Positions 19,811-51,028 of a stretch of DNA of 64,000 nucleotides are shown here, piece after piece. Under the pieces are notes generated by a model. The model saw nothing but the letters and a program-made list of their open reading frames with translations, was not told where the DNA came from and did no database searches. Source of the stretch: Mobula birostris. Its lineage: Eukaryota. The stretch's first letter is position 1. Each line of letters opens with the position of its first letter. The position numbers and the translations under genes were made by a program. The DNA lies in contig NC_092376.1 of NCBI RefSeq assembly GCF_030028105.1, positions 35,016,935-35,080,934 of the forward strand, written 5' to 3'.

Positions 19811-22256
19811 GTGGAATATACAGGTTGAATTATTGGTTAACTCTAAAGTTAAAAAGACTCAACCAAAAAGATACACCACAGGGGTTATGTTTAATGGTTT
19901 ATCGCCCTCTTGTCATTGTAATAACATGTTGTAGTTCCTTTTTCTGTAAATTCAGACAATGTATATTTTGTGCTGTATAATTGACAGCACTGTCTTAAAA
20001 CAGTCTTGTATAATTTGGTTGCCAAATTCAAAAGAACTGCCATGCCTCATTATGGGTGAAGCATGAGTAAATGATGAAGTTGTACTTGTGTTTCTTATTT
20101 GTAATCCTTTATTCTGTATATGGATTATTTGATTTCATTATTAATTATTAAGCAGTTCAGATTCCTAAGTACAGATTTCATTAGCTGAGATAAAATCGAA
20201 TAGAGCTGGTCTTAAAAACAAAAAAGCACTCCGGCATCATTTGTAGCAAAAAAGGACAAAGAGTTAATCAGGTTTTTTCCACTGAGGTTGGGTGGGATTA
20301 TAACTCACCCATCAGAATTTTTTTCATCAGAATTGGGAAATGAGAGAAAGCACATTAGATGTAAGTTGGTTGATAAAAGGTCTGTGTTCTCTTTTCACAG
20401 AAACTGCCTGGCCAGCATTTATTCTTTTTATTTTGAATTTCCAGCATCTACAGTTGGTTTAAACTTTTAAAGTGGGATTTATGTTAGGGAAGTTTCAACA
20501 TTAAACTTGTGGTTGATTTTGGTTAATTAACCTAAATTTTAAGGACTTCATTTGAATCACTGTAACTTGAAACTCAATTTTTTTCTGTTCACAACATTTT
20601 AATTAAAAATTATAAAGGCTAACTTTGGAATATCTTTTGTATTCCTAGATAATAACACACAGATTTAGAAAAATCCTACCCTTGGGACTCTAGATCCCCA
20701 AACCACAACGTTACGAGAAAATTTTAATAATGTCTACAATTCACTTCATTGCTGAAAAGATTTTTGGGATGTTCTGAGTGTCAAAGGTGCTATATAAATG
20801 TAAAGCTGTCTTTTCTATTTTCAAAATGTGATGGTTTACTGAATATTCTTTCTAAGCACTTGTATTATTTAATATTGGAGAGATTATACAGATATCTAAA
20901 GTGTCAGTCAAAACAAGATGGGTATTCAATGTCATGAGCACAGGATATTGAATAAATTTATAAACAAACACAGATTAAATTGGGTCTGCTTGTTTGTAAT
21001 TAGAGTATTTCCAATAGTGAGTAATCAAAAAATATTTAAAGCAGAATTAGTAGAAGATGCAAACTGGATTGTTTGGCTTAAAGATCTATTCTGATGTCCC
21101 TCATTCCCTGTACTTAAATGATCACATGCATTAGATCTGTTCATCTTGAACACAGACCAATTCTTGCAGAATGATATGCAGTTTTCTTATGTTGCTGTGA
21201 AGTACAAGGAGTTTCTTTGTCATTGTTTGTGCAGCCACAGATTTCATCAAATTCTTGTCCAAATAATAAAGCCATGAGTAAAATTTTATGAAAGATTACA
21301 GCAAAATGTGAACAGATGTCAGATTCAAATTTAGAACCAAAATAGCATCACGATCTCTTAAGAATCAGTTAATTTAAAAGTTGCCAAGTTATAGAATGGA
21401 TTGTCCAGGATGCATGTAACCTAACCCAGGAGAATATATTTGTAGTAGATAACGAGAGGCAACTGATCTCAGATACATTGTTCGACTGGAGCAGCTCTGG
21501 TTGTTGTCCTTGGAATAAAAATCAAGAGGAGATATGATAGAGATCATAACTAATTTGATAAATGTCTAACATCATAAACAAGATGTTGTTTGTAGAAGTG
21601 ATGTTTTTAAAGAGGGAATTGGTTACACACTGAGAGAAAATAGCGGAAAAAAACAAGGAAATCCACCTGTTTTGATTTACCAATTAAGTGCTGTCTCCGT
21701 GCCCTTGAATAGTTCCATTCTATGGTGTAACAGTTCTGTAATTTATACTTCCAACTGCTTTCATTTTGAATATCATTGTGAAGTCCAGTATTTTCCTCAT
21801 GTTTAATATTTTTAAATTATGTCTACATATTCAAATGTAAGTGTTGGTCCCGTACCCTGGAACACCAATCTATACACCTCATACCTGTCAAAACATCTTT
21901 TAACCACCATTTGTTTACTAACCCTTAGTCAAATTTGTAACCATGCTAATCGTGAACATTTCACATTTTAGACTTCAGTTTTGCTAACATGTCCTACCTA
22001 CTTCATAGATATTTATTGGGTTCCATATATAGCATCACCCTCATCCACTTTATTTGATAAATCCAAGCTAAGTATGTTACTGTATTATTCAAGTGGCTGT
22101 ACATTTTCTCCTGGATTAGTTTGTAAAGCCTTTCCTGAAGCCCAATGTTAAATTGGCACTAGATCCTTTTTGGCTTATAATTGCCAAATTTAAGCAACAC
22201 ACATCAAAATTGCTGGTGAACGCAGCAGGCCAAGCAGCATCTGTAGGAAGAGGTGC

Positions 22257-22292
22257 AGTCGACGTTTCAGGCCGAGACCCTTCGTCAGGACT
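22257..22292 (-). ncRNA. Minimal hammerhead ribozyme motif in the inverted Penelope arm
   Basis: Minus strand reads AGTC CTGACGA AGGGTCTCGGCCT GAAAC GTC GACT. Confidence 0.75.
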
Positions 22293-23091
22293 AACTGAAG
22301 GAAGAGTGAGTAAGGGATTTGAAAGTTGGAGGGGGAGGGGGAGATCCAAAATGATAGGAGAAGACAGAAGGGGGAGGGATAGAGCCAAGAGCTGGACAGG
22401 TGATGGGCAAAAGGCGATACGAGAGGATCATGGGACAGGAGGTACGGGAAGAAAGACAAGGGGGGGGGGACCCAGAGGATGGGCAAGAGGTATATTCAGA
22501 GGGACAGAGGGAGAAAAAGGAGAGTGAGAGAGAGAATGTGTGCATAAAAATAAGTAACAGATGGGGTACGAGGGGCAGGTGGGGCCTAGCGGAAGTAAAA
22601 GAAGTCGATGCTCATGCCATCAGGTTGGAGGCTACCCAGACGGAATATAAGGTGTTGTTCCTCCAACCTGAGTGTGGCTTCATCTTTACAGTAGAGGAGG
22701 CCGTGGATAGACATGTCAGAATGGGAATGGGATGTGGAATTAAAATGTGTGGCCACTGGGAGATCCTGCTTTCTCTGGCGGACAGAGCGTAGATGTTCAG
22801 CAAAGCGGTCTCCCAGTCTGCGTCGGGTCTCGCCAATATATAAAAGGCCACATCAGGGGCACCGGACGCAGTATATCACCCCAGTCGACTCACAGGTGAA
22901 GTATTGCCTCACCTGGAAGGACTGTTTGGGGCCCTGAATGGTGGTAAGGGAGGAAGTGTAAGGGCATGTGTAGCACTTGTTCCGCTTACACGGATAAGTG
23001 CCAGGGGGGAGATCAGTGGGGAGGGATGGGGGGGACAAATGGACAAGGGAGTTGTGTAGGGAGTGATCCCTGCAGAATTCAGAGAGAGGGG

Positions 23092-24790
23092 TGATCGTGA
23101 CCCCACTAAGGAGCACCAGGCCATTGTCTCCCACACCATCACCGACTTTATCCGCTCAGGGGACCTCCCATCCACTGCTACCAACCTTATAGTTCCCACA
23201 CCCCGCACTTCCCGTTTCTACCTCCTACCCAAGATCCACAAACCTGCCTGTCCTGGCCGACCTACTGTCTCAGCTTGCTCCTGCCCCACCGAACTCATTT
23301 CTGCATACCTCGACACTGTTTTATCACCCCTTGTTCAATCCCTTCCGACCTATGTTCGTGACACTTCTCACGCTCTTAAACTTTTCGATGATTTTAAGTT
23401 CCCTGGCCCCCACCGCTTTATTTTCGCCATGTATGTCCAGTCCTTATATACTTCCATCCCCCATCAGGAAGGTCTCAAAGCTCTACACTTCTTTTTGGAT
23501 TCCAGACCTAATCAGTTCCCCTCTACCACCACTCTGCTCCGTCTAGCGGAATTAGTCCTTACTCTTAATAATTTCTCCTTTGGCTCCTCCCACTTCCTCC
23601 AAACTAAAGGTGTAGCTATGGGCACCCGTATGGGTCCTAGCTATGCCTGCCTTTTTGTTGGGTTTGTGGAACAATCTATGTTCCGTGCCTATTCTGGTAT
23701 CTGTCCCCCACTTTTCCTTCGCTACATCGACGACTGCATTGGCGCTGCTTCCTGCACGCATGCAGAACTCGTTGACTTTATTAACTTTGCCTCCAACTTT
23801 CACCCTGCCCTCAAGTTTACCTGGTCCATTTCTGACACCTCCCTCCCCTTTCTAGATCTTTCTGTCTCTGTCTCTGGAGACAGCTTATCCACTGATGTCT
23901 ACTATAAGCCTACTGACTCTCACAGCTATCTGGACTATTCCTCTTCTCACCCTGTCTCTTGCAAAAACGCCATCCCCTTCTCGCAATTCCTCCGTCTCCG
24001 CCGCATCTGCTCTCAGGATGAGGCTTTTCATTCTAGGACGAGGGAGATGTCTTCCTTTTTTAAAGAAAGGGGCTTCCCTTCCTCCACTATCAACTCTGCT
24101 CTTAAACGCATCTCCCCCATTTCACGTACGTCTGCTCTCACTCCATCCTCCCGCCACCCCACTAGGAATAGGGTTCCCCTGGTCCTCACCTACCACCCCA
24201 CCAGCCTCCGGGTCCAACATATTATTCTCCGTAACTTCCGCCACCTCCAACAGGATCCCACCACTAAGCACATCTTTCCCTACCCCCCTCTCTCTGCATT
24301 CCACAGGGATCACTCCCTACACAACTCCCTTGTCCATTCGTCCCCCCCATCCCTCCCCACTGATCTCCCTCCTGGCACTTATCCGTGTAAGCGGAACAAG
24401 TGCTACACATGCCCTTACACTTCCTCCCTTACCACCATTCAGGGCCCCAAACAGTCCTTCCAGGTGAGGCAACACTTCACCTGTGAGTCGACTGGGGTGA
24501 TATACTGCGTCCGGTGCTCCCGATGGGGCCTTTTATATATTGGTGAGACCCGACGCAGACTGGGAGACCGCTTTGCTGAACATCTACGCTCTGTCCGCCA
24601 GAGAAAGCAGGATCTCCCAGTGGCCACAGATTTTAATTCCACATCCCATTCCCATTCTGACATGTCTATCCACGGCCTCCTCTACTGTAAAGATGAAGCC
24701 ACACTCAGGTTGGAGGAACAACACCTTATATTCCGTCTGGGTAGCCTCCAACCTGATGGCATGAGCATCGACTTCTTTTACTTCCGCTAG
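23092..24790 (+). CDS. Penelope RT + GIY-YIG endonuclease ORF, 5'-truncated, open but probably inactive
   Basis: FYLLPKIHK, GVAMGTRMGPSYA, RYIDD, VIY...YIGET, EHLRS. The RT motif A Asp appears as Tyr (MYVQSLYT). The first ~10 codons of the listed 575-aa ORF come from the inverted arm. Confidence 0.88.
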
Positions 24791-25084
24791 GCCCCACCTG
24801 CCCCTCGTACCCCATCTGTTACTTATTTTTATGCACACATTCTCTCTCTCACTCTCCTTTTTCTCCCTCTGTCCCTCTGAATATACCTCTTGCCCATCCT
24901 CTGGGTCCCCCCCCCCCTTGTCTTTCTTCCCGGACCTCCTGTCCCATGATCCTCTCGTATCCCCTTTTGCCTATCACCTGTCCAGCTCTTGGCTCCATCA
25001 CTCCCCCTCCTGTCTTCTCCTATCATTTTGGATCTCCCCCTCCCCCTCCAACTTTCAAATCCCTTACTCACTCTTCCTTCAGTT

Positions 25085-25120
25085 AGTCCTGACGAAGGGT
25101 CTCAGCCTGAAACGTCGACT
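25085..25120 (+). ncRNA. Minimal hammerhead ribozyme motif in the Penelope pLTR
   Basis: AGTC CTGACGA AGGGTCTCAGCCT GAAAC GTC GACT. Confidence 0.75.
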
Positions 25121-25414
25121 GCACCTCTTCCTACAGATGCTGCTTGGCCTGCTGCGTTCACCAGCAACTTTGATGTGTGTTGCTTGAATTTCCAGCATCT
25201 GCAGAATTCCTGTTAATTGCCAAATTTATCCCGTTTTTAGAATAAGGTAGTACGATGCTTCAAAGCCCCCATTTCTTTTGAATCACCTCATCTAAGTAGG
25301 ATGCAGATTCTACTCTTTCCCCCAGCAATGCTACCTGGACCCAAATGTGATCAATTTGTATTTATTGAGCACCATTTGTATAGCAAAATATTATAAGGTG
25401 TTTAAGGTATAACA

Positions 25415-27200: not shown

Positions 27201-27422
27201 TGTAAACAGCACATGATACATTGCCTCGTATCCCTGAAGCATACCCTATTTTGTTCACATCTCTACAAATAAACATTATCTCACATGCTCTATTTTAGCT
27301 CTTTGCCACAAACTGTTATACCTTTGAAACCTATGCACTCTTCGTAATTGTCTACCTTTGTGTTTGCAGAAAATCTAGCAACCCCATCTTCCAACACACT
27401 TTAAATTGTGAAAATGAGGTAG

Positions 27423-30400
27423 TGTAGTGGTGTGCTACACACAGAGCTAGAAATAATGACACGCAGTCTGTAAGTTGCACTCGAGACTCGTTTATTCAAA
27501 CTTTGCGGCACTGGCTTTTAAGCGGTTCCCTTCCAGCCCTCCCCGGGTGGAAATGACGTCAGAGCTGCATTACAGAAGTCTCTCCCCACGTGGGCTATTT
27601 TGTGAGCCGGTTTGCTTGTGTAGAAAGTGGGTCGCCACATAATTCCCCCCCCCCCAAGAACCGGTGATACACCCCCAATGTCCACAGTCTGGATCAGTCT
27701 CTGTTTGGGCGGTCTGCCTCTGCGCTGCAGTGCCTGAACCTCGACCAGCTGCGCCAAGTCCACATGGGCCGGTTTGAGTCAGACCACCGTGAAAACCTCC
27801 TCTTTCCCCCCAATGTCCAGAACGTACGTGGACCCATTGTTACTGATCACCTTGAACAGCCCCTTGTACGGCCGCTGTAGTGGTGTCCGGCATGCACCCC
27901 TTCGTACAAATACAAACTTAAAGTTCTGCAAGTCTTTGAGTACGCAGGTCGGGATCTGTCTGTGCTGTGAAGTCGGTACGGGGGCCAGGTTGCCAAGCCC
28001 TTCACGTAGTCTGTCCAGGACTGCTGCGGGTTCTTCCTCTTGCCCCCTTGAGGCTGGTATGAACTCTCCTGGGACAACCGGGGTGTGCCGTACACCAGCT
28101 TGGCCAACGAGGTGTGCAGATCCTCTTTGGGTGCTGTGCGGATTCCAAGCAGGACCCAGGGAAGCTCGTCCACCCAGTTAGGCCCTTTCAGGCGGGCCAT
28201 GAGAGCCAACTTTAAGTAACAGTGGAAGCGTTCCATGAGTCCGTTCGACTATGGGTGGTAGGCAGTTGTGTGGTGTAATTGTGTTCCCAACAGGCTGGCC
28301 ACAGCCGACCACAGGCTGGAGGTGAACTAGACGCCTCTGTTGGAGGTAATGTGGGCGGGTATCCCAAAGCGTGCTACCCAGGTTGCAATCAGCGCTTGGG
28401 CGCAGGAATCGGTGGTGGTGTCGTTGAGCGGGACCGCCTCTGGCCATCTCGTGAACCGGTCTATCACAGTTAGGAGGTACCGCGCTCCTCATGACACCGG
28501 CAGGGGCCCCACGATATCCACATGAATGTGGTCGAACCTCCGGCAGGTGGGTTCGAACTGCTGCGGTGGGGCTTTGGTGTGCTGCTGCACCTTGGCTGTT
28601 TGGCACTGAGTGCATGTTTTGGCCCATTCGCTGACCTGTTTGCAAAGTCCGTGCCACATGAACTTGCTGGAGACCATCTGGACGGTTGTCCTGATGGGTG
28701 CACCAAGCCGTGTATGGAGTTGAAAACTCGCTGCTGCCGGGACGGTGGGGCGGGGTTGGCCGGTAGCCACGTCACACAGGAGGGTCCCCTCACCTGGGCC
28801 TATGAGGAAGTTTTGCAGCTGCAAACCCGAGACTGTAGTCCTGTAGCTGGGCATCTCGTCGTCTGCCTGCTGTGCCTCCGCCAGTGCTGCATAGTCCACC
28901 CCCTGGGACAGCACCTGGATAGCTGGTCTGGAGAGTGCGTCCGCCACAACGTTGTCCTTTCCCGAGACATGCTGGATGTCCGTCATGTACTCGGGAGATG
29001 TAGGACAGATGTCGCTGCTGGCAGGTCAACCAGGGATCGGACACCTTTGTGAACGCGAAGGTCAACGGTTTGTGGTCCATGAACACGGTGAACGGCCTGC
29101 CTTCTAAGTAGTACCTGAGATGCTGGATTGCCAGATATAGTGCCAACAGCTCCCGGTCGAAGGCACTGTACTTGAGTTCGGGTGGCCATAGGTACCTGCT
29201 GAAGAACACCAGGGGTTGCCAGCACCCCTCGATGAGTTGCTCCAGCACCCCACCGACTGCTGTGTTGAATGCATCCACTGTGAGGGCGGTTGGAACGTCC
29301 GTTCTGGGGTGCACTAGCCTCGAGGCGTCTGCCAAGGCTTCCTTGGCTTTAACGAAAGCAGCCACAGCCTCTTCGTCCCAAGTAATGTCCTTGCCTTTAC
29401 CCGACATCAGGGTGAACAAAGGGTGCATGATACAGGCTGCTGAGGAGGGGAAGTGGTGGCAGAAGTTCACCATACCAACGCACTGTGTTGGGCCAGGCGA
29501 AGTGGTGGATCGCATCTACCTTGGCGGGCAGAGCTGTTGCCCTGTCTTTGGTAATCCTGTGGCCCAGGAAGTCGATGGTGTCGAGTCTGAACTGACAAAG
29601 TGAATAGGAATAAGGAACCTTGGTTCTCAAGGGATATTGCAACTCTGATAAAGAAGAAGAGGGAGTTGTATAACATGTATAGGAAACAGGGAGCAAATAA
29701 GGTGCTTGAGGAGTATAAGAAGTGCAAGAAAATACTTAAGAAAGAACTCAGGAGGGCTAAAAGAAGACATGAGGTTGCCTTGGTAGTCAAAGTGAAGGAT
29801 AATCCAAAGAGCTTTTACAGGTATATTAAGAGCAAAAGGATTGTAAGGGATAAAATTGGTCCTCTTGAAGATCAGAGTGGTCGGCTATGTGCGGAACCAA
29901 AGGAAATGGGGGAGATCTTAAATAGGTTTTTTGCATCTGTATTTACTAAGGAAACTGGCATGAAGTCTATGGAATTAAGGGAAACAAGTAGTGAGATCAT
30001 GGAAACTGTAGAGATTGAAAAGGAGGAGATGCTTGCTGCCTTGAGGAAAATTAAAGTGGATAAATCCCCAGGACCTGACAGGGTGTTCCCTCGGACCTTG
30101 AAGGAGACTAGTGTTGAAATTGCAGGGGCCCTGGCAGAAATATTTAAAATGTCGCTGTCTACAGGTGAGGTGCCGGAGGATCGGAGAGTGGTTCATGTTG
30201 TTCCGTTGTTTAAAAAAGGATCGAAAAGTAATCCGGGAAATTATAGGCCGGTAAGTTTAACGTCAGTAGTAGGTAAGTTATTGGAGGGAGTACTAAGAGA
30301 CAGAATCTACAAGCATTTGGATAGACAGGGACTTATTAGGGAGAGTCAACATGGCTTTGTGCGTGGTAGGTCATGTTTGACTAATCTACTGGAGTTTTTC

Positions 30401-32742
30401 GAGGAGGTTACCAGGAAAGTGGATGAAGGGAAGGCAGTGGATTTGTCTACATGGACTTCAGTAAGGCCTTTGACAAGGTCCCGCATGGGAGATTAGTTAG
30501 GAAAATTCAGTGGCTAGGTATACATGGAGAGGTGGTACATTGGATTAGACATTGGCTCAATGGAAGAAGCCAAAGAGTGGTAGTAGAGAATTGCTTCTCA
30601 GAGTGGTGACCTATGACTAGTGGTGTGCCACAGGGATCAGTGCTGGGTCCATTGTTATTTGTCATCTATATCAATGATCTGGATAATAATGTGGTAAATT
30701 GGATCAGCAAATTTGCTGATGATACAAAGATTGGAGGTGTAGTAGACAGTGAGGAAGGTTTTCAGAGCCTGCAGAGGGACTTGGACCAGCTGGAAAAATG
30801 GGCTGAAAAATGACAGATGGAGTTTAATACAGACAAGTGTGAGGTATTGCATGTTGGAAGGACAAACCAAGGTAGAACATACAGGGTTAATGGTAAGGCA
30901 CTGAGGAGTGCAGTAGAACAGAGGGATCTGGGAATACAGATACAAAATTCCCTAAAAGTGGCGTCACAGGTAGCTAGGGTCATAAAGAGAGCTTTTGGTA
31001 CATTGGACTTTATTAATCAAAGTATTGAGTATAAGAGCTGGAATGTTATGATGAGGTTGTATAAGGCATTGGTGAGGCCGAATCTGGAGTATTGTGTTCA
31101 GTTTTGGTCACCAAATCACAGGAAGGATATTAATAAGGTTGAAAGAGTGCAGAGAAGGTTTACAAGGATGTTGCCGCGACTTGAGAAACTCAGTTACAGA
31201 GAAAAGTTGAATAGGTTAGGACTTTATTCCCTGGAGCGTAGAAGAATGAGGGGAGATTTGATAGAGGTATATAAAATTATGATGGGTATAGATAGAGTGA
31301 ATGCAAGCAGGCTTTTTCCACTGAGGCAAGGGGAGGAAAAAACCAGAGGACATGGGTTAAGGGTGAGGGGGGAAAAGTTTAAAGGGAATATTGGGGGGGG
31401 GGCTTCTTCACACAGAGAGTGGTGGGAGTACGGAATGAGCTGCCAGACGAGGTGGTAACTGCGGGTTCTTTTTTAACATTTAAGAATAAATTGGACAGAT
31501 ACATGGATGGGAGGTGTCTGGAGGGATATGGTCCGTGTGCAGGTCAGTGGGACTAGGCAGAAAATGGTTCGGCACAGCCAAGAAGGGCCATAAGGCCTGT
31601 TTCTGTGCTGTAGTTTTTCTATGGTTTCTATTTGGCCAGGTTGATCATGAGGCCGAAATCACTCACGCGGGAGTAGAGCTGGCAGACATGGGACTGACGC
31701 TCCTGACGACTACTGCTGGCTATGAGGATGTCGTCCAAATAGATGAGCGCAAAGTCCAGGTCGCGTCCCACCGCATCCATTAGTCGCTGGAACGTCTGTG
31801 CGGCATTCTTCAGGCCGAACGGCATTCGGAGGAATTCGAACAGGCCGAACGGGGTGATGAGTGCTGTTTTGGGGAAGTCTTCAGGGTGTGCCGGGATTTG
31901 ATGCTACCCACGGACGAGGTCTACTTTGGAAAAGATATTTGCCCCATGCAGGTTTGCTGCAAAGTCCTGTGTGTGCGGCGTGGGGTAGTGGTCTGGAGCT
32001 CTCCCTCTTGGCTTCCCACAGCACGTCCGCCCGGGACGCCACCTTCCGGGGGTCACTGAAATCTGCGTCGGCCAGCAGCAGATGTATGTCCTCGGGCAGT
32101 TGCTCTAGGAATGCCTGCTCAAACAGGCAGGGCTTGTGTCCTTCAGCCAAGGCCAGCATCTCGTTCATTAATGCTGACAGCGGCCTGTCGCCCAAACTAT
32201 CCAGGTGCAGCAAGCGGGCACCACGCTTATGCCGTGAGAGGCCAAAGGTTTCTTAGAGCAGAGCTTTGAATGCTGCATATTTGCCTTCTTCGGGGGGTGA
32301 CTGTATGAAATCCCCAACCCGTGCGCTTGTCTCCTGGTCAAAGGAGCTCACCATGTAATAGTAACGTGCGGAATCCGAAGATATCTGCCGAATCTGGAAC
32401 TGGGCTTCTGCTTGCTCAAACCACACGCGTGGTCGCAGCGTCCAGAAAGTTGGCAGTTTTAGCGAAACTGCGTGAACAGATCATCTTTGGTCCAAATCCT
32501 GTTTGGACCATCGGGGTCACCCGTGCAGCGATGTGCTACACACAGAGCTAGAAATAACGACACGCAATCTGTAAGTCACTCTCGAGACTCGTTTATTCAA
32601 ACTTCGTGGCACTGGCTTTTAAGCAGTTCCCTTCCAGCCCTCTCCCGGCGGAAATGACGTCAGAGGTGCATTACAAAAGTCTCTCCCCGCACGCAGGCTA
32701 TTTTGTGAGCCGGTTCGCTTGTGTAGAAAGTGGGTCGCCACA
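27423..32742 (-). mobile_element. Ty3/Gypsy LTR retrotransposon (CsRN1-like), defective
   Basis: TG..CA LTRs at 27423-27639 and 32524-32742. GTAG TSD. tRNA-Trp-like PBS (GGTGACCCCGA) at about 32511-32523. Polypurine tract next to 27640. gag (VSLKLPTFW), RT (MPFGLKNAAQTFQR..YLDD), RNase H (YSAFDRELLA) and integrase (HIHVDIVGPLP) all frameshifted. Confidence 0.95.
29598..31630 (+). mobile_element. Young 5'-truncated CR1 LINE nested in the Gypsy RT
   Basis: Long, nearly intact ORF2 segments (298, 66 and 213 aa). TTCTATGGTTTCTA tail. The Gypsy RT sequence is contiguous across the insertion. Confidence 0.95.
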
Positions 32743-33379
32743 GTAGGCCCCAGCAGTTATCCCTATTTCACATCGCTGATTATTATCTTACCATAAGTTC
32801 ATCTGCCTGATGGGCAGAATGTACATTTATGCATTTATCTTTATACATTTACATGAGATACATTTATTCATTTTCAGTTTGAATGCTGACAACACAAGAA
32901 GCAGACTTCCACCTAGAAGTAGCTACTTCTAGTCTAGGTTGTTGATGATAATTAATGACAAAAAATCCTTCAAAATATCACATTTTATTAATGCCACTGC
33001 TCTTGCATTACAAAGTGTTGCATCTTACCCAATTTAGCCATGTTTATCTGCAAATACAATGGACAAATAAGCCTTGTAATAGGCAATTGATACAGAAAGC
33101 TTACAATATTATATTTAGGAAAGATGCATCAAAACCCATGTCCAATAGTTATTCTAACATGAAGTTTTTACTTTGTACTACTGAACTGTTTAAACTATTA
33201 TTTTCTTTATTATTTCATTTTCATGTGGAATTCATTCCAAGGATGACAGTTTTCCCTTCTGTATTTCACCTAGGCACACATCTCCTAACCTGAAGACCAT
33301 GCCTATTCAGCAAGTGATCAATAGAAACATCAAAGGTCAGTCCAGATCCTGTCATCATTTTCAATTAAAGCACATTACT

Positions 33380-40585: not shown

Positions 40586-40908
40586 GTTTAGCACAAAGGA
40601 CAGGACCTAAAATAGTAATGGATGGGTATTTCATTTACAGTACTCACAATTGTGTAAGTAGTGGAAAGAAGGAAAAATACAGGGGTCAGAGTCGTTGAGC
40701 TAACTACCAATACAGATTTAGTCCAAATACCCTCCTTCCATGTTATAACTTAAGTTTCTGTGGAACCGAGTTATGTCTTCTCCAGCAAATAAATAGCACA
40801 TAATAAATATCTCAAAAGTACAAGGGAGGGCTCAAATAGCACGAAAAGGTAAAACAAATACATCAGTGAACCAATTCTGATGAGTCCAGTAACAGCAAAT
40901 TTCCTCAC

Positions 40909-41343
40909 ATCACTCTTGCTTGTGCTGGCCAAGGCCTGGACACTCTTCCTCTTCTTGTACTTGTCTTTATAAGTTTTGTTGCGGTGTTTCTTGCACATCC
41001 AGGGCTTCCTCGGTTTAGCCACTTGGGTAGTGTTCTCGGTACATCCCTCATACACACACTTTCTAGTCACCCTCTCGCTGTCGCCGCTTTCATCTTCGTC
41101 CTCCTCCTCCTCCTCCTCTTCTTCATCCTCCTCGTCTTCCTCCTCATCGTCCTCCTCCTCTTCCCCGGGGCTGTCTCTGTTCTCCGAAGGCTCTTGTGCT
41201 CCCCGCCCCCCGTCAGGATCGGCATTAATTTCATTACCAGCCTCGTCCATGTTCACCGTGGTCAATTCATGGTAGCTGACGTTACACGAGGGAGGGGTGG
41301 ACTCCTCAGCTGCCCGCCCGCTGTCATTACCTCCCGCACTCAT
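40909..41343 (-). CDS. RFXAP: RFXAP exon 1 (regulatory factor X-associated protein)
   Basis: ATG to |GTGAGG, 435 nt. Acidic tract followed by CVYEGCTENTTQVAKPRKPWMCKKHRNKTYKDKYKKRKS. Assembled protein is 219 aa. Confidence 0.93.
41090..41163 (+). repeat. Imperfect (TCC/TCT/TCG)n trinucleotide tract encoding the RFXAP Glu/Asp run
   Basis: Directly visible in the sequence. Confidence 0.9.
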
Positions 41344-41384
41344 CCCGAAGCCCCGAGCCCTGACCTCCCCATTCGGGAACTCCG

Positions 41385-41540
41385 TAAATCTCGCGCGATT
41401 TCGTGCGTAAATCTCCGCCTCCTATTTCAGCAGTCAGCGACGCTTTCCCCCCGCCCCCCATCATCTGCACCAATCCGCTGCTCGCTCCCGCCCCTTCTCT
41501 GCGCATGCGCACCTGTGCGGCCCGAGACGGCCGTGCGATT
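41385..41540 (-). promoter_or_regulatory. RFXAP CpG-island promoter
   Basis: Perfect NRF1 palindrome TGCGCATGCGCA at 41500-41511. GC boxes (CCCGCCCC) at about 41450 and 41487. CCAAT at 41470. TCTCGCGCGA (BANP/Kaiso-like) at about 41389. Confidence 0.75.
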
Positions 41541-45961: not shown

Positions 45962-46724
45962 GTGGAATATGATGATACTATAGTAGGAACAGTGTCTTCA
46001 CCCCAAATTAGAATCGGATTTCTTTTTCTTTTCAAATCTTTTTATTGTTATATTATACAGGAAAAATAACATGAGTACTTTGAAGTAACAACAATTACAA
46101 TGTCTCAAGAAAGACATTATCTTAAAGACTGGAAAAAAAGATTGTGATAACAAAAAAAACCTACTAAGCAGAAAAGTGAGGAAAAAAAAGAACCCATTAG
46201 GTGTACAGCCCCGGAGCCATGCGTCGTACAAAAAGCTTCTAAAAGTAAACATCAAACCGCCAGCAAGAAAAGAAAATAAACTGAAAAATTTACAATTAGA
46301 TCGTGGAAAAATTATATCAATTAACTCAAATAATAATAACGAGCAAATGAGCCCCATCTTTTCTCAAAATCAAATAAAGGTTCAAAGGTTCGACTTCTAA
46401 TTTTCTCCAAACTAAGACATAGCATCACTTGAGAGAATCATTGTGACGAAGTGGGAGCTGATGTATCCTTCCACTTCAACAAAATGGCCCTCCTAGCTAT
46501 CAATGTAACAAATGCAATAACATGTTGGTCAGACACAGAAATACCATGAATATTTTGAGGAATTATTCCAAAAAGCATAGTTAATTTATCAGGTTGTAAA
46601 TTAATTTTAAGTGCTTTAGAAATTGTTGAAAAAACCGACTTCCAGAACTGTTCCAATATAGAACAAGACCAAAACATATGTGTCAGTGTAGCTGTCTCAG
46701 TTTTATGTCTATCACAATGACTAT

Positions 46725-49700
46725 TGTACGGGGTCTTTCTTTTTTTTGTATGTTAAATTTAAAATGGCTTCTTTGTTATGTTATAATCGGGAATGCTGGT
46801 TTGTTGTGTTAAACGCTGAGAAAGCTTTGCGCTAGCAGCTTGTTGTGGGTTAAGAGGTGATAAGAGGATGTTACGAACCAATTGGGATGGTTGTTATGAT
46901 TTGGTGTATCTGGGAGATTTGTGTGCACGGGGTTTTGGGGCAGAAGGTGGGAGAGCGAGGCAGAGGATGGACCAGGTGCTGTGATGTCCGCTAACGGGGT
47001 CGGACCCCAAGGAGGGCGTTCGGCAAGGAGATGGAGACGGACTCATGTGGAGCGTCTGGTCGACCACCGTTATTGGCCCCAGGCAGCCGGTCGAGGTGGT
47101 CCGAGGGGTCGCAGGGTGAAGAAGAAGGTTCTTGAGCTCCCAACTGTTCTGTGCACGAAGAGATTGAACTATGATAAGTGTGGCGCCTTTTATTTTCCTT
47201 TTATATTTTATTCTCTATTAATTATATAGTTCCAGTAATATCTATAAACTGTAAATCACTTAATCGTATCTGGTGTATTTTCTGTTATTTGGGCGGGGTG
47301 GAGTACATCACACAGCATCCACGCAAACTAATTACCCAGTTTGGCGGGGCCAAGGGTAGTTTCCCTAGATGACAGCGAGCCGAGCGTCCCTGAGGATGGC
47401 CGGGGGGCTACATTGTGTGGGCTTTGTCTGGGATTGGGTCTACTGGTATGCTGTGTGGGTGCCCTGTTTAAATCTGTAATGTGTGTCTCTATGGGTTATT
47501 TGCTGGTGATTGCTGTATGCGTTGTGGGTGCGGTCTTTGTTCGAGTTCAGGCTAGCATTGACGAGTTGGAGGTGGTACTCGGGGCTGCCCATGCGGTTGG
47601 GGGAGAGAGAGGGAAGAGTGGTCTGATTTGTAGGTAGGGTCTGTGAATAAATGTTCTAGCTCTGGCAGGCTCCGCCTGGCACTTGGGATAGTGTCCACCC
47701 CAAGAGGGGCAGAGGTGTGTGGGACGTGGGCGGAGCGGATCTCTCAGTTGTTAGATGAGTGGCAGTGCTCAGTTGAGGGAGAGCGACAGGGATTGGTTGA
47801 AAGTTTAAGTAGGCGGGCTGGTGACCGTGTTAGAGCTGTCAGGTTCAATTACACCGTAGTGACAGCTGTCAGTTATTTAAAAGAGGGGGGAAAGTTTTTA
47901 GTGTGTCTTCTCTGGCTAGGAGGGCAGCTAAATTGCTTGCAGTGCCAGGGGGATCATTTCAGGGGATCATGCCCCTCCTTCAGTTGTTCAGCTGATCAGA
48001 GAGGTGTCGGGAAACTTAGTGGAGGCCCAGTGGGGGAACGGCTTGGGGTCTCTGGGGAAGCACGTTCCCAGCAATGTAACAATGAACTTCCGAAAGGAGC
48101 AGACCCTATTCCTGAAGGCTTAGAGGCCCCAGGGTGTCGTTATGGATAGAGAGAAGCAATGCTAAAGCCATCCTCAACCCCGGGGCGCAGGTCAAGTTGT
48201 TGTATAGTTCGTTTTACAACCGGTGTCTGAAGCATTTATCCTTGACAACCGCAAGGGCACCGGAGACTTTGGGTACTAGTGGCAGTAGTTATCCAGAAGA
48301 CGATGATTGGTTAATGACTCTGGAGTTCATGGGGGCATTGCCTGGGCACCCAGCGTGTCGAATTGCTTCTGGGGACGTGTGTAACAGCCTTGAGCCGGTA
48401 CCGAATTTAAGTGAAACCCAGCGGTGGTACGGCCTGGGGAAAGAAGGTGAGGGTGAGACCCTCTTAGTAGATGCTCCGAACTACCACGAGGGAGGGGAAT
48501 TGACCGCTGAAGACACCTCAGTGAGAGAGAGGTCGCGGCAACTGGACCCTGGCACAGTGGAAGATGGAGGCAGCGTGTGTGTGGATTATGCGACGTGGTT
48601 TAATGTGCTGGATCTGAGGAGTGGATGTTGCCAGATCCCGAGGAGTGCGGCTGTCGAGCCGAAGACAGCCATTATTCCCTCGGATCCTACCGGTCCGAAA
48701 AGATACCCAAGGGCATATCCGGAGCCCCTGCATCCTTCCCGCAGGGCATGAGGAAGATCATGGGGGAAGTGAAGGTGTGTGGAGTTTTGGCGTATGTGGA
48801 TGACTGCCTAGAGCTTGGATTCGCCTGGGGGGACTTTGAGGCGAGGCGAATGGCTGAGCCCAGGCGACAGAAGCGAAGTGTGGAGGAGTTTTTAGCCGGA
48901 GGAGTTTGGTGCAATGTGAGAAAATTGACCCGACATACCAGTTGAACCTCCTGGTGTTGGAACAGACAGTGGTGGACCTGGGGATGAAAACCCAGGTCGT
49001 CAATCTGAATGAGACACAGGGGAGAGAGGGGATTTGCATCGCTGAACTGAGTGCTCAGAAATGCCGGACGGAGATTGAGTGCCGGAATTGTGGGACGACC
49101 ATTGCAGACTTGGAATTCACGCTCGTCAACGTGGAGAAGGAGCAACGGAATTCCGAGCCAACACTGCGGTCATGTACTGATGAATTAATCCAGCAAGTCG
49201 AAACAATGAACCACCTCTGAAGGGATCAGCAGAAACTCAAGACGTCGATTCAGAAAAGATTGGACGACTTACAAGTTGGGGAAGATCAAGGAATTGTTCT
49301 GACTAAGGCCAACAGAAAACCAAGAGCCCAGGGAGGGGAGTTTGACTACACTCCCGAGGAGGTGAAGAAATAGAGGACAGATCTCGGAAAAGGGAGGCGG
49401 ACGCTTGAAAGGAACCTGAAGATGACTATTGACAGTTCAAATGAAGTGGAAAAACTGAAAGTTGACCTGGAAGACGTCATCAGGAAGAAAAAACTGGCTG
49501 AACATCCTTTAACTGCTGCTTTTCAGGTCAGGGTGGGATAACTGCGTCCCAGATTGAGATGGCCAAGAACCCTGAGTCAGAGCTGCGGAGGCTGTGGCGA
49601 GAGTTGAAGGAGTCCCTGAAGAAGCTGGTGTCTCGACCGCAGGAGGCTGAAGGGGTAGCCCCGGCTAAATGTTTCAGTTTGGAGAAACTCAAACAGCAGC

Positions 49701-50889
49701 TACCGATCGAGGGAATGAGGAAGAATACGGATTCGAAGGATGGTGTGCTGCACATGTGGTACATGCTGCCTTTCACTAACTTCCCCGTGATTGAGGAAGA
49801 GACCTTTGGCCCTTCTCCCACTGAGTCAGGTGTAGTGGGGAGGGCTAGCTGTGGGCAGTCTGGGTTACGGGAGGATCAGGAAGGAAAAGAAGCGGGACCC
49901 CGGACACGAGACAGGGGGCTCCGAGCTGTAATGGTCGCCTGAGTGAGAGAGGAGTTGGCAAGCAGGCCCAAGGTATCCCTAGTAGTGTCTGAGCCTTTTG
50001 GGTTTAGGTGAGGGGGTATGGAGGTCTCGGAAGGTTGGCCTATGTAGCGCCCGTGGGACGGGCGTGGGGTCCACTGTTTGGGGAGCACTGTCACTGTGTG
50101 TACCTGTGTATGTGTGTGTTGTGCGTCTGCAGGACTGGTTGGCGAGTTATTTAGAAGTCATGAGGGCATGACTTTTATTTGGTGGGGGGAGAGTGTACGG
50201 GGTCTTTTTTTTGGTATGTTAAATTTAAAATGGCTTCTTTGCTATGTTATAATCGGGAGTGCTTCTTTGTGCTGTTAAACGCTGAGAAAGCTTTGCGCTG
50301 GCAGCTTGTTGTGGGTTAAGGGGTGATAAGAGGATGTTACGAACCAATTGGGATGGTTGTTATGACTTCGGTGTATCTGGGAGATTTATATGCGCGGGGT
50401 TTTGGGGCAGAAGGCGGGAGAGCGAGGCAGAGGATGGACCAGATGCTGTGATGTCCGCTAACGGGGTCGGACCCCGAGGAGGGCATTTGGCAAGGAGACG
50501 GAGACGGACTCGTGTGGAGCGTCTGGTCGACCACCGTTATTAGTCCCAGGCAGCCAGTCGAGGTGGTCCGAGGGGTCGCAGGGTGAAGAAGGAGGTTCTT
50601 GAGCTCCAACTGTTCTGTGCACGAGGAGATTGAACTTTGATAACTGTGGCGCCTTTTATTTTCCTTTTATATTTTATTCTCTATTAATTATATAGTTCCA
50701 GTAATATCTATAAACTGTAAATCATTTAATCGTATCTGGTGTATTGTCTGTTATTTGGGCAGGGTGGGGTACATCACACAGCATCCAAACAAACTAATTA
50801 CCCAGTTTGGCGGGGCCGAGGGTTGTTTCCCTAGACGACAGCGAGCCAAGCGACCCTGAGGGTGGCGGGGGGGGGGGGGGGGGGCTACA
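46725..50889 (+). mobile_element. Non-autonomous Ty3/Gypsy LTR retrotransposon with PNMA-like gag and host-gene cargo
   Basis: TG..CA LTRs at 46725-47412 and 50194-50889. CTAT TSD. Degenerate tRNA-Pro PBS (TGTGGGCTTTGTCTGGGAT). PPT TGGGGGGAGAG. Remnants of gag ([18 protein letters not shown]), protease (AILNPGAQV) and RT (LDLRSG, PKGISGAPASF, LAYVDD). Confidence 0.93.
48940..49500 (+). pseudogene. Captured intronless myosin heavy chain rod (S2) fragment, MYH16-like
   Basis: One frame with two in-frame stops: [79 protein letters not shown]. Collinear with myosin II AELTAKKRKLEDEC..IDDLELTLAKVEKEK..TLDDLQAEEDK..LTK. The LKMTID..N is as I recall from MYH16. Confidence 0.85.
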
Positions 50890-51028
50890 CTATCAACATT
50901 AGAAAAGATTTTAGAAAGTCTCTCCTTTGTCAAATGATAACAATGTACAATTTTAAATTGAATCAATGAATGGCTAGCACAAGAAGAAGAGTTAACCAAC
51001 TTCAAAATTCGCATCCAATCCTTCGTCA

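Follow-up and report, generated by a model that had tools for sequence, protein, structure and literature searches.

Long terminal repeat (LTR) elements are already known to capture host messenger RNA (mRNA). LTR-mediated retrocopies have been reported from insects, zebrafish, chicken, and mammals (mouse and human) (Tan et al. 2016, PMC5131818). Crocodilian endogenous retroviruses (ERVs) carry KIT-ligand and nectin3 mRNAs in nine and six copies, respectively, with cargo open reading frames (ORFs) reported to be under purifying selection (Chong et al. 2014, PMC4299795), and host genes enclosed by LTR pairs are on record for zebrafish (PMC8672886). Here, a Ty3/Gypsy element of approximately 4.2 kb is described from the ray Mobula birostris. 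It occupies positions 46725-50889 of the analyzed window (64,000 nucleotides (nt) of contig NC_092376.1, 35,016,935 to 35,080,934, forward strand) and carries an intronless piece of myosin rod sequence as cargo.

The ray family shares with the retrocopies described by Tan et al. the replacement of internal sequence by a partial spliced mRNA, microsimilarity at both switches, the lack of poly(A), and renewed spread in non-autonomous form. The cases described there are young with few insertion sites, whereas the ray family has at least 577 copies in several deletion subfamilies, has gene models in three ray genera, and appears to keep an open frame without amino acid constraint. As in the crocodilian ERVs, an ancient host mRNA was captured by a vertebrate LTR element and is common to related species. 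The crocodilian elements are retroviral, with broken viral genes and constrained cargo, whereas the ray element is Gypsy, with hundreds of copies, neutral cargo, and the whole path open. A first-pass annotation of the window had called such capture rarely described for vertebrate Gypsy elements; LTR-mediated capture in vertebrates is already published in both of the reports above, and the present case is indeed a Gypsy element. The scale, the donor, and the frame rule are the parts without a precedent in the literature searched: no account was found of the ray family, of a donor lacking a head, or of an LTR element under selection for its frame alone, repeat libraries lying outside the search. 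The main text of a mobulid genome preprint (10.64898/2026.10.27.761883) contains 0 occurrences of "myosin" or "MYH"; its supplements may bear on novelty.

Identity of the Cargo and Its Source

With X placed at stops, the cargo of the window copy aligns gap-free over approximately 170 amino acids to residues ~915-1088 of MYH7 and MYH4, in subfragment 2 (S2) of myosin. The E values are 2.3e-16 for MYH4 and 4.2e-16 for MYH7 (range 2-6e-16), and 12 of the 13 PDB matches are myosin heavy chains. The heptad-rich frame, its motifs, and the stops at 49218 and 49371 are all present as first described, and the identification as sarcomeric myosin S2, as opposed to a generic coiled coil, holds. Pfam gave no recognition of the window cargo, and the clusters from the Atlas search are generic coiled-coil and Myosin_tail_1. 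A homologue search with the window segment, which was word-limited and has no evidential weight, returned two element-derived Mobula proteins and no myosin. The cargo bounds 48940..49500 given in the first-pass annotation were corrected at both ends. Positions 48918-48970 belong to an RNase H remnant, and myosin begins near 48971. The sequence after 49500, taken for an integrase tail, is myosin to ~49712, in a different frame of this copy (donor exons 9-10 and 13-14).

A Narcine protein (P0014), much nearer to the cargo than the genome's own MYH genes, pointed to G000:C28:18.10 Mb. The donor is a separate gene at this site (G000:C28:17.90-18.23 Mb), with 23 coding exons over 326 kb and GT-AG borders at 22/22 introns. 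When element copies are compared with this gene exon by exon, across introns of 2-39 kb, identities reach 96% in older copies and are 80-90% in the subfamily of the window copy. The window copy crosses six exon junctions at which introns of 38,847, 19,459, 28,628, 3,001, 2,120, and 23,825 nt are absent, and capture is therefore placed at the mRNA level, as had been proposed. A tree built from the captured region unites the donor with 14 cargo rows (98/97); Narcine is their sister, and two teleost fragments follow (94/87). The gene on contig C11 of the same genome groups with shark and true MYH16 (100/100).

MYH16 had been named as the donor. The MYH16 orthologue of this genome is the separate gene on C11, and the tree places the cargo with the C28 gene; the exon-exon junctions that were to be sought in MYH16 are crossed, but they are those of the C28 gene. 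The C11 MYH16 gene and the fast and slow MYH genes were ruled out as donors, with 24-56% protein identity on short pieces. That the element captured a spliced myosin mRNA is almost certain.

Capture Junctions and Order of Events

The RNase H of an older cargo copy was used as a genome search query, which gave 30 loci: 17 integrase-bearing, 6 integrase-less and cargo-free, 5 cargo-bearing, and 2 other. The parent is a Ty3/Gypsy element with a PNMA-type gag and with RNase H before integrase. At the 5′ junction the parent and the donor are identical at 10/11 nt; at the 3′ junction the identity is 10/12 nt, measured against the integrase-less form. Among 60,000 random junctions, 4 and 29 reach the level of the 5′ and 3′ microhomology, respectively. 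The codon register is kept at both junctions. As in the cases of Tan et al. 2016, an intronless partial mRNA replaces internal sequence, microsimilarity at both switch points is above chance, and later spread is seen. The microhomology with the parent element bears out the template switching by reverse transcriptase (RT) suggested earlier.

Approximately 66 nt of the element were replaced by cargo. The replaced element already lacked integrase: the 3′ match of 10/12 nt is to that form, and cargo copies share a further pol deletion with two integrase-less copies. A point against this order is the weak support (83/63) in the RNase H tree, where the cargo clade lies amid integrase-less rows. A one-step replacement of RNase H and integrase, as first proposed, is contradicted by the integrase-less cargo-free relatives (6/30 loci) and by older cargo copies that retain RNase H; from the copies compared, the loss of RNase H is placed after capture.

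The captured piece extends from complementary DNA (cDNA) position 271 to ~1866 and covers twelve exons from 179 kb of gene. The longest cargo copy lacks 618 nt in the middle. A search for copies retaining the 3′ part of donor exon 10 yielded no such copy, the sole candidate (1/1) being the donor gene itself, and the 618-nt gap may date from capture or from shortly afterward. Subsequent deletions took away most of RNase H, and the stretches of cargo that were lost differ among subfamilies.

Probable Selection for an Open Reading Frame

The frame and protein analyses were made with 28 copies of one subfamily chosen by likeness to the window copy; L018 and L023 were excluded from the counts as near-identical to L017 (28/30 kept). 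An unbroken path through gag, a GGGAAAC heptamer, and the pol-myosin frame, from the ATG to a shared stop, is found in this subfamily. The gag ATG is present in 20/21 copies and the stop at the end of gag in 96%. The heptamer appears as G GGA AAC in 24/25 located copies, in the register leading to the -1 pol frame. A -1 frameshift site is marked by the heptamer X XXY YYZ, read in the gag frame, and by a stimulatory structure lying 5-9 nt past it; GGGAAAC is a putative site of this kind. Onward through RT, RNase H, cargo, and tail, the most frequent distance from one anchor to another is always divisible by three. The window copy itself, like most copies, is interrupted by its own stops and frameshifts.

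Shared premature stops number 0, compared with 8.3 expected from the stop share among private changes (1.37 + 3.52 + 2.24 + 1.15; Poisson P ~3e-4). All 15 deletions that were sized from the donor or from at least two relatives are multiples of three. Those on the path to the window's subfamily measure 75, 27, 159, 60, 99, 78, 333, 27, 126, 618, and 9 nt, and those on side branches 213, 72, 60, and 105 nt; for private indels the corresponding count is 2/33. By chance, the in-frame share of short repeats is 34-40% in gag-pol (6-9-nt repeats) and 52-77% in the cargo, and the joint chance that all deletions are in frame is ~2e-4. Judged from these patterns in the genomic copies, selection for the open frame is probable.

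Several points weigh against this conclusion. The sample is a single subfamily, and one older copy, L053, is without the heptamer region. The stop expectation was drawn from genomic copies in decay, whose mutation spectrum may hold more stops than RT errors produce; with the rate halved, P becomes ~0.02. Stop absence in the cargo alone is not significant (P 0.15), and the cargo deletions alone prove little, given the in-frame share of the repeats there. One shared pol deletion measures 355, 355, 348, and 359 nt against four parents, and 355 is not a multiple of three. The N-terminal gag deletions and those from RT to RNase H lie outside the set of singly sized ones. The hairpin after the heptamer, at -23.7 kcal/mol, has a z of -1.2, which is not significant.

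The alternative that survives best accepts capture and spread as described and treats the open frame as a by-product: RT would delete at short, mostly in-frame repeats, and no stop happened to become fixed. The repeat pairs of the cargo, the 355-nt pol deletion, and the stop count of the cargo taken alone all suit this explanation. The gag-pol repeats do not: by chance only 34-40% are in frame, yet 7/7 well-sized gag and pol deletions are; the whole path has no shared stop, and the heptamer and the gag ATG are preserved. This explanation is considered unlikely, and selection for the open frame is preferred.

Amino Acid Change in the Cargo and the Element

Pairwise ratios of non-synonymous to synonymous rates (dN/dS) are alike, at ~0.64, within the subfamily, between subfamilies, and relative to the donor. 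Synonymous to non-synonymous counts for shared and private changes are 22:50 and 75:186 in the cargo (p 0.77), 10:24 and 69:178 in gag (p 0.84), 16:58 and 97:249 in pol (p 0.31), and 3:17 and 40:86 in the tail (p 0.19). The cargo has lost 9, 206, and 3 codons in deletions that put its heptads out of register, and prolines that are not in the donor recur in the rod across copies of the subfamily. Purifying selection on the cargo protein, as expected of an oncogene-type capture, was not found. The amino acids of the cargo change neutrally, and the protein is probably a passenger.

The first-pass annotation had suggested a Gag/Pol-coiled-coil fusion, and a Gag-Pol-myosin protein could be useful to the element, for example through a coiled coil that aids particle assembly or recruits the element's own RNA. 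The fusion frame was indeed once open and has been preserved, one frame being held at both junctions and through the later deletions, and a coiled coil can absorb many substitutions. A functional coiled coil is opposed by shared-branch ratios equal to those of decaying copies in all four segments, by the disrupted heptads and recurrent prolines, and by subfamilies that keep different sections of the cargo, some of them without overlap. Since amino acid change is neutral in gag and pol as well as in the cargo, the fusion is unlikely to be a working protein.

A requirement on the RNA is suggested instead, because the element would code for nothing useful yet must stay translatable. If the downstream frame were not open, untranslated RNA of well over 2 kb would follow the gag stop. 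UPF1 is removed by elongating ribosomes, and 1-5% readthrough can inhibit nonsense-mediated decay (NMD) (PMC5360307). By analogy, avoidance of NMD may be the cause of frame selection, a tentative proposal held at a little below even chances; translation-coupled packaging is the alternative cause. Some RNA viruses require translation through a region whose product is dispensable (PMC4395149, citing van der Most et al. 1995). Helper-dependent deleted RNA-virus genomes likewise retain an open frame though the protein is immaterial; those are laboratory systems, whereas the ray case would be a germline retrotransposon with a requirement read from evolution only.

Family Size and Spread

A DNA search spanning both edges of the cargo gave 1088 first-look candidates; 40/40 scored candidates match almost the full length of the query, 39 at 89-92%. 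A 26-nt donor-exon pattern (at most 2 mismatches) has 578 matches in the genome, one of which is the donor itself, and 0 with the control. The resulting count of 577 is a floor, because the pattern recovers only 41/45 aligned cargo loci. Target-site duplications (TSDs) of 4 bp, differing from copy to copy, were parsed at 6 cargo copies; the parsing missed 3/6 whole subfamily copies and most older ones. LTR pairs diverge by ~4-10% in cargo copies with a clean pair. The earlier view that the chimera predates this insertion and spread as a family stands.

Chimeric RT-RNase H-myosin-tail gene models are present in M. birostris, M. hypostoma, Hypanus sabinus, and Hemitrygon akajei, and several are named "myosin" or "MYH16". 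Such names are on the representative in 4/9 named element-derived gene clusters examined and on a member in a fifth, with one further case. The exact tree place of the stingray models is unsure because they mix features of several subfamilies. The cargo is nearer to its own donor than Narcine is, and stingrays carry cargo; if descent was vertical, capture would thus fall between the Narcine and stingray splits. At G000:C6:186.6-188.3 Mb, at least 6 cargo-bearing copies lie on one strand within 1.7 Mb, which suggests local segmental duplication.

It is also conceivable that the cargo matters as RNA, either as host-like sequence that softens silencing or as a source of small RNA acting on the donor gene. 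All 45 aligned cargo loci retain some donor sequence, with exon 6 in every one, and at least 577 copies could feed small-RNA pathways. The subfamily of the window copy is down to ~80% donor identity, which erodes pairing, and synonymous and non-synonymous sites both drift; this role is very improbable, somewhat more so than a useful fusion protein.

A myosin retrocopy made by a long interspersed nuclear element (LINE) inside an existing element, whether or not inserted afterward as the first-pass annotation had considered, and capture at the DNA level are refuted by the junction data and are scarcely credible: LINE-type intronless myosin-tail pieces do seem present elsewhere in the genome, but neither junction has poly(A) or a separate TSD, parent sequence is replaced rather than interrupted with microhomology at both ends, introns are missing at exact exon borders, and 40/40 scored copies span both edges.

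Long, stop-containing, apparently intronless myosin-tail matches occur at G000:C16:85153809, C17:52869143, C9:73021819, C8:50532253, C6:2100758, and C6:2234357. These six may be processed pseudogenes of non-muscle myosins.

Donor Gene on Contig C28

The donor frame is open for 1137 amino acids, from a lever-arm relic to an MYH16-like C-terminus. The rod tree puts the donor within the MYH16 clade (100/99) but outside the group made up of all seven jawed-vertebrate MYH16 rows (100/100), to whose rods it is 60-62% identical. Three extra introns are common to the donor and the C11 MYH16 gene, and the fast MYH genes are without them. Masticatory myosin MYH16 is reviewed, and its extra introns are noted, in PMC6402096. 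The donor differs from MYH16 in lying outside the jawed-vertebrate clade, on another contig ~0.6 Mb from the fast MYH cluster, and in that no motor domain was found. It is, as the trees read, a deep MYH16 paralogue and not the MYH16 orthologue. Full-length orthologues of the donor were not found in database searches (best BLAST identity 67%, exon 10), a blank that is weak evidence.

A myosin-head profile run over 430 kb around the donor gave nothing (best E 3.2), with 40 kb upstream of the ATG exon covered; at control loci the same search gave 33 exon matches with E < 0.02. The Narcine model begins at the same Met as the donor, with 83% identity over 30 residues. The donor would thus be a headless rod without a motor. 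This is put as probable and no higher because only 40 kb upstream were covered and because an AG precedes the donor ATG. Invertebrate paramyosin, which forms the core of thick filaments, likewise has the whole myosin rod and lacks the motor head. Because the donor groups with MYH16, in a tree that holds no paramyosin, its head would have been lost independently; its place beside MYH16 argues against descent from paramyosin. Vertebrate muscle is stated to lack paramyosin (PMC8945602).

Contigs from two sequencing runs equal donor exon 6 with 0 differences over 145 nt, and no element copy comes close. Four runs of unspecified tissue were presumed, though not recorded, to be RNA, and these two are among them. 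The GT-AG joint over the 3,001-nt intron appears in all four, and element copies carry the same joint too. These data hint at expression of the donor.

Four further observations concern the donor and its relatives. In one of the presumed RNA runs, a GT-AG joint connects a site within donor intron 5 with exon 6 (L049:143-4452, G000:C28:18.10 Mb), possibly marking an internal start or an alternative exon. The Narcine model also omits donor exons 3 and 5. Within donor intron 2 (G000:C28:18013938-18014040), a short acidic coding-like stretch is ~50% like the N-terminus of the Cyprinodon model P0016 (E 6e-6 to 9e-6) and may be a conserved alternative first exon. In the Dallia protein P0021, the N-terminal 78 residues match AbLIM_anchor (E 1e-21) before the myosin-rod part, which may reflect a fused gene model or a real neighbor; no match to this part was found within the 430 kb of C28 searched.

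Architecture of the Element and Neighboring Features

The features of the window element are collected in Table 1. The first-pass annotation had called it a complete LTR element, which is correct in outline. Paired LTRs with TG...CA ends, a short TSD, a primer-binding site (degenerate in the window), and a polypurine tract are present, as in Ty3/Gypsy elements; the mismatch of the LTR pair corresponds to 5.8%. The primer-binding site is putatively of the tRNA-Pro type. The domain order is also that of Ty3/Gypsy, with PNMA gag in the window and RT_RNaseH, Integrase_H2C2, and rve in this order in the parent locus L129. The window element is not autonomous: integrase is absent, RNase H is nearly gone, and RT and gag are internally deleted. 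Exon junctions in cargo block 1 lie at about 49148, 49253, 49340, and 49486.

Table 1. Features of the myosin-carrying Ty3/Gypsy element, in window coordinates
Feature	Positions	Strand	Evidence or remark
5′ copy of 4-bp TSD CTAT	46721..46724	+	3′ copy at 50890-50893
5′ LTR, TG...CA, 688 nt	46725..47412	+	40 mismatches/684 aligned bases vs 3′ LTR
Degenerate primer-binding site	47413..47433	+	Better preserved in older copies
gag remnant, PNMA-type capsid, internal deletion, frameshifted in window copy	47479..48121	+	Pfam PNMA E 1e-5
GGGAAAC heptamer linking gag frame to -1 pol frame (putative); hairpin 5 nt downstream	48009..48015	+	24/25 located subfamily copies
pol remnant: protease-region and RT pieces, several internal deletions	48016..48917	+	Blocks vs integrase-bearing parent; weak RVT_1 match E 0.02
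RNase H remnant	48918..48970	+	Older cargo copies and parents have a longer RNase H that opens with this motif
Cargo block 1: donor coding exons 3 (part)-4-5-6-7 (start), spliced	48971..49497	+	79.9% to donor cDNA 321-847, E 4e-137
Cargo block 2: pieces of donor exon 7 and exons 9-10, junction ~49552	49499..49615	+	85.7% to cDNA 879-906 and 1051-1134
Cargo block 3: donor exon 13 end and most of exon 14, junction ~49617	49608..49712	+	72.8% to cDNA 1745-1858; 87-92% in older copies
Parental C-terminal pol tail, WYMLP motif, to shared pol stop; integrase core absent	49713..49942	+	Sequence comparison with parent element
Polypurine tract	50178..50193	+	Sequence
3′ LTR, 696 nt	50194..50889	+	LTR comparison

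Other features were observed in the window. An ORF at 40774-41421 on the minus strand contains the RFXAP C-terminal domain (Pfam RFXA_RFXANK_bdg, E 1e-20) and is probably the RFXAP first exon; the myosin-carrying element lies ~5 kb upstream of it on the opposite strand. At 22186-25191, inverted arms of 632 and 284 nt (97-98%) flank a 576-codon ORF with a terminal GIY-YIG domain (E 6e-4), an arrangement resembling a young Penelope-type element bounded by inverted terminal repeats. Another Gypsy element, unrelated to the first, at 27422-32751 (minus strand), has short LTRs and matches to RNase H and the integrase zinc finger, and is broken by a LINE piece near 29.6-31.5 kb.

Proposed Mechanism and Significance

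The proposed course begins with a Ty3/Gypsy lineage that lost integrase and parts of gag-pol, as its structure shows, and that would have been mobilized in trans by autonomous relatives. Inside one particle, RT would have jumped to the co-packaged spliced mRNA of the probably headless MYH16-like gene and then back, exchanging ~66 nt for rod sequence of up to ~1.6 kb, with the reading frame kept at either end. The chimera shrank through deletions and spread to at least 577 sites, probably beginning before the stingray/devil ray split if descent was vertical. The myosin piece is probably a passenger, and its amino acids drift neutrally; selection would keep the ribosome path that is seen from the gag ATG over the -1 slippery site to the stop near the 3′ LTR. 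The likeliest reason would be that frameshifting ribosomes shield the long RNA from NMD, with translation-coupled packaging as the alternative. As a whole, this is the best explanation available and is judged likely to be correct.

The donor, the parent element, the intermediate, and hundreds of descendants are preserved in one genome, and the order of events is directly readable. The data also point to a 1137-amino-acid, probably headless myosin gene for which no full-length entry was found in the database searches made, and myosin gene counts in rays may be inflated by element-derived models misnamed myosin or MYH16. A natural element of this kind separates selection for an open frame from selection for a protein, so that the question of why dead elements keep ORFs becomes testable on natural copies. 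In its broadest form, the reading is that non-autonomous LTR elements are selected for end-to-end translatability without protein constraint, like defective interfering virus RNAs, and that jawed vertebrates have an overlooked headless, paramyosin-like MYH16 paralogue, expressed at least once in the germline or early embryo; the chances for and against this are about evenly balanced. If it is true, only in-frame captures and deletions would spread, which would bias which pieces of host mRNA elements carry and would pre-build open chimeric genes.

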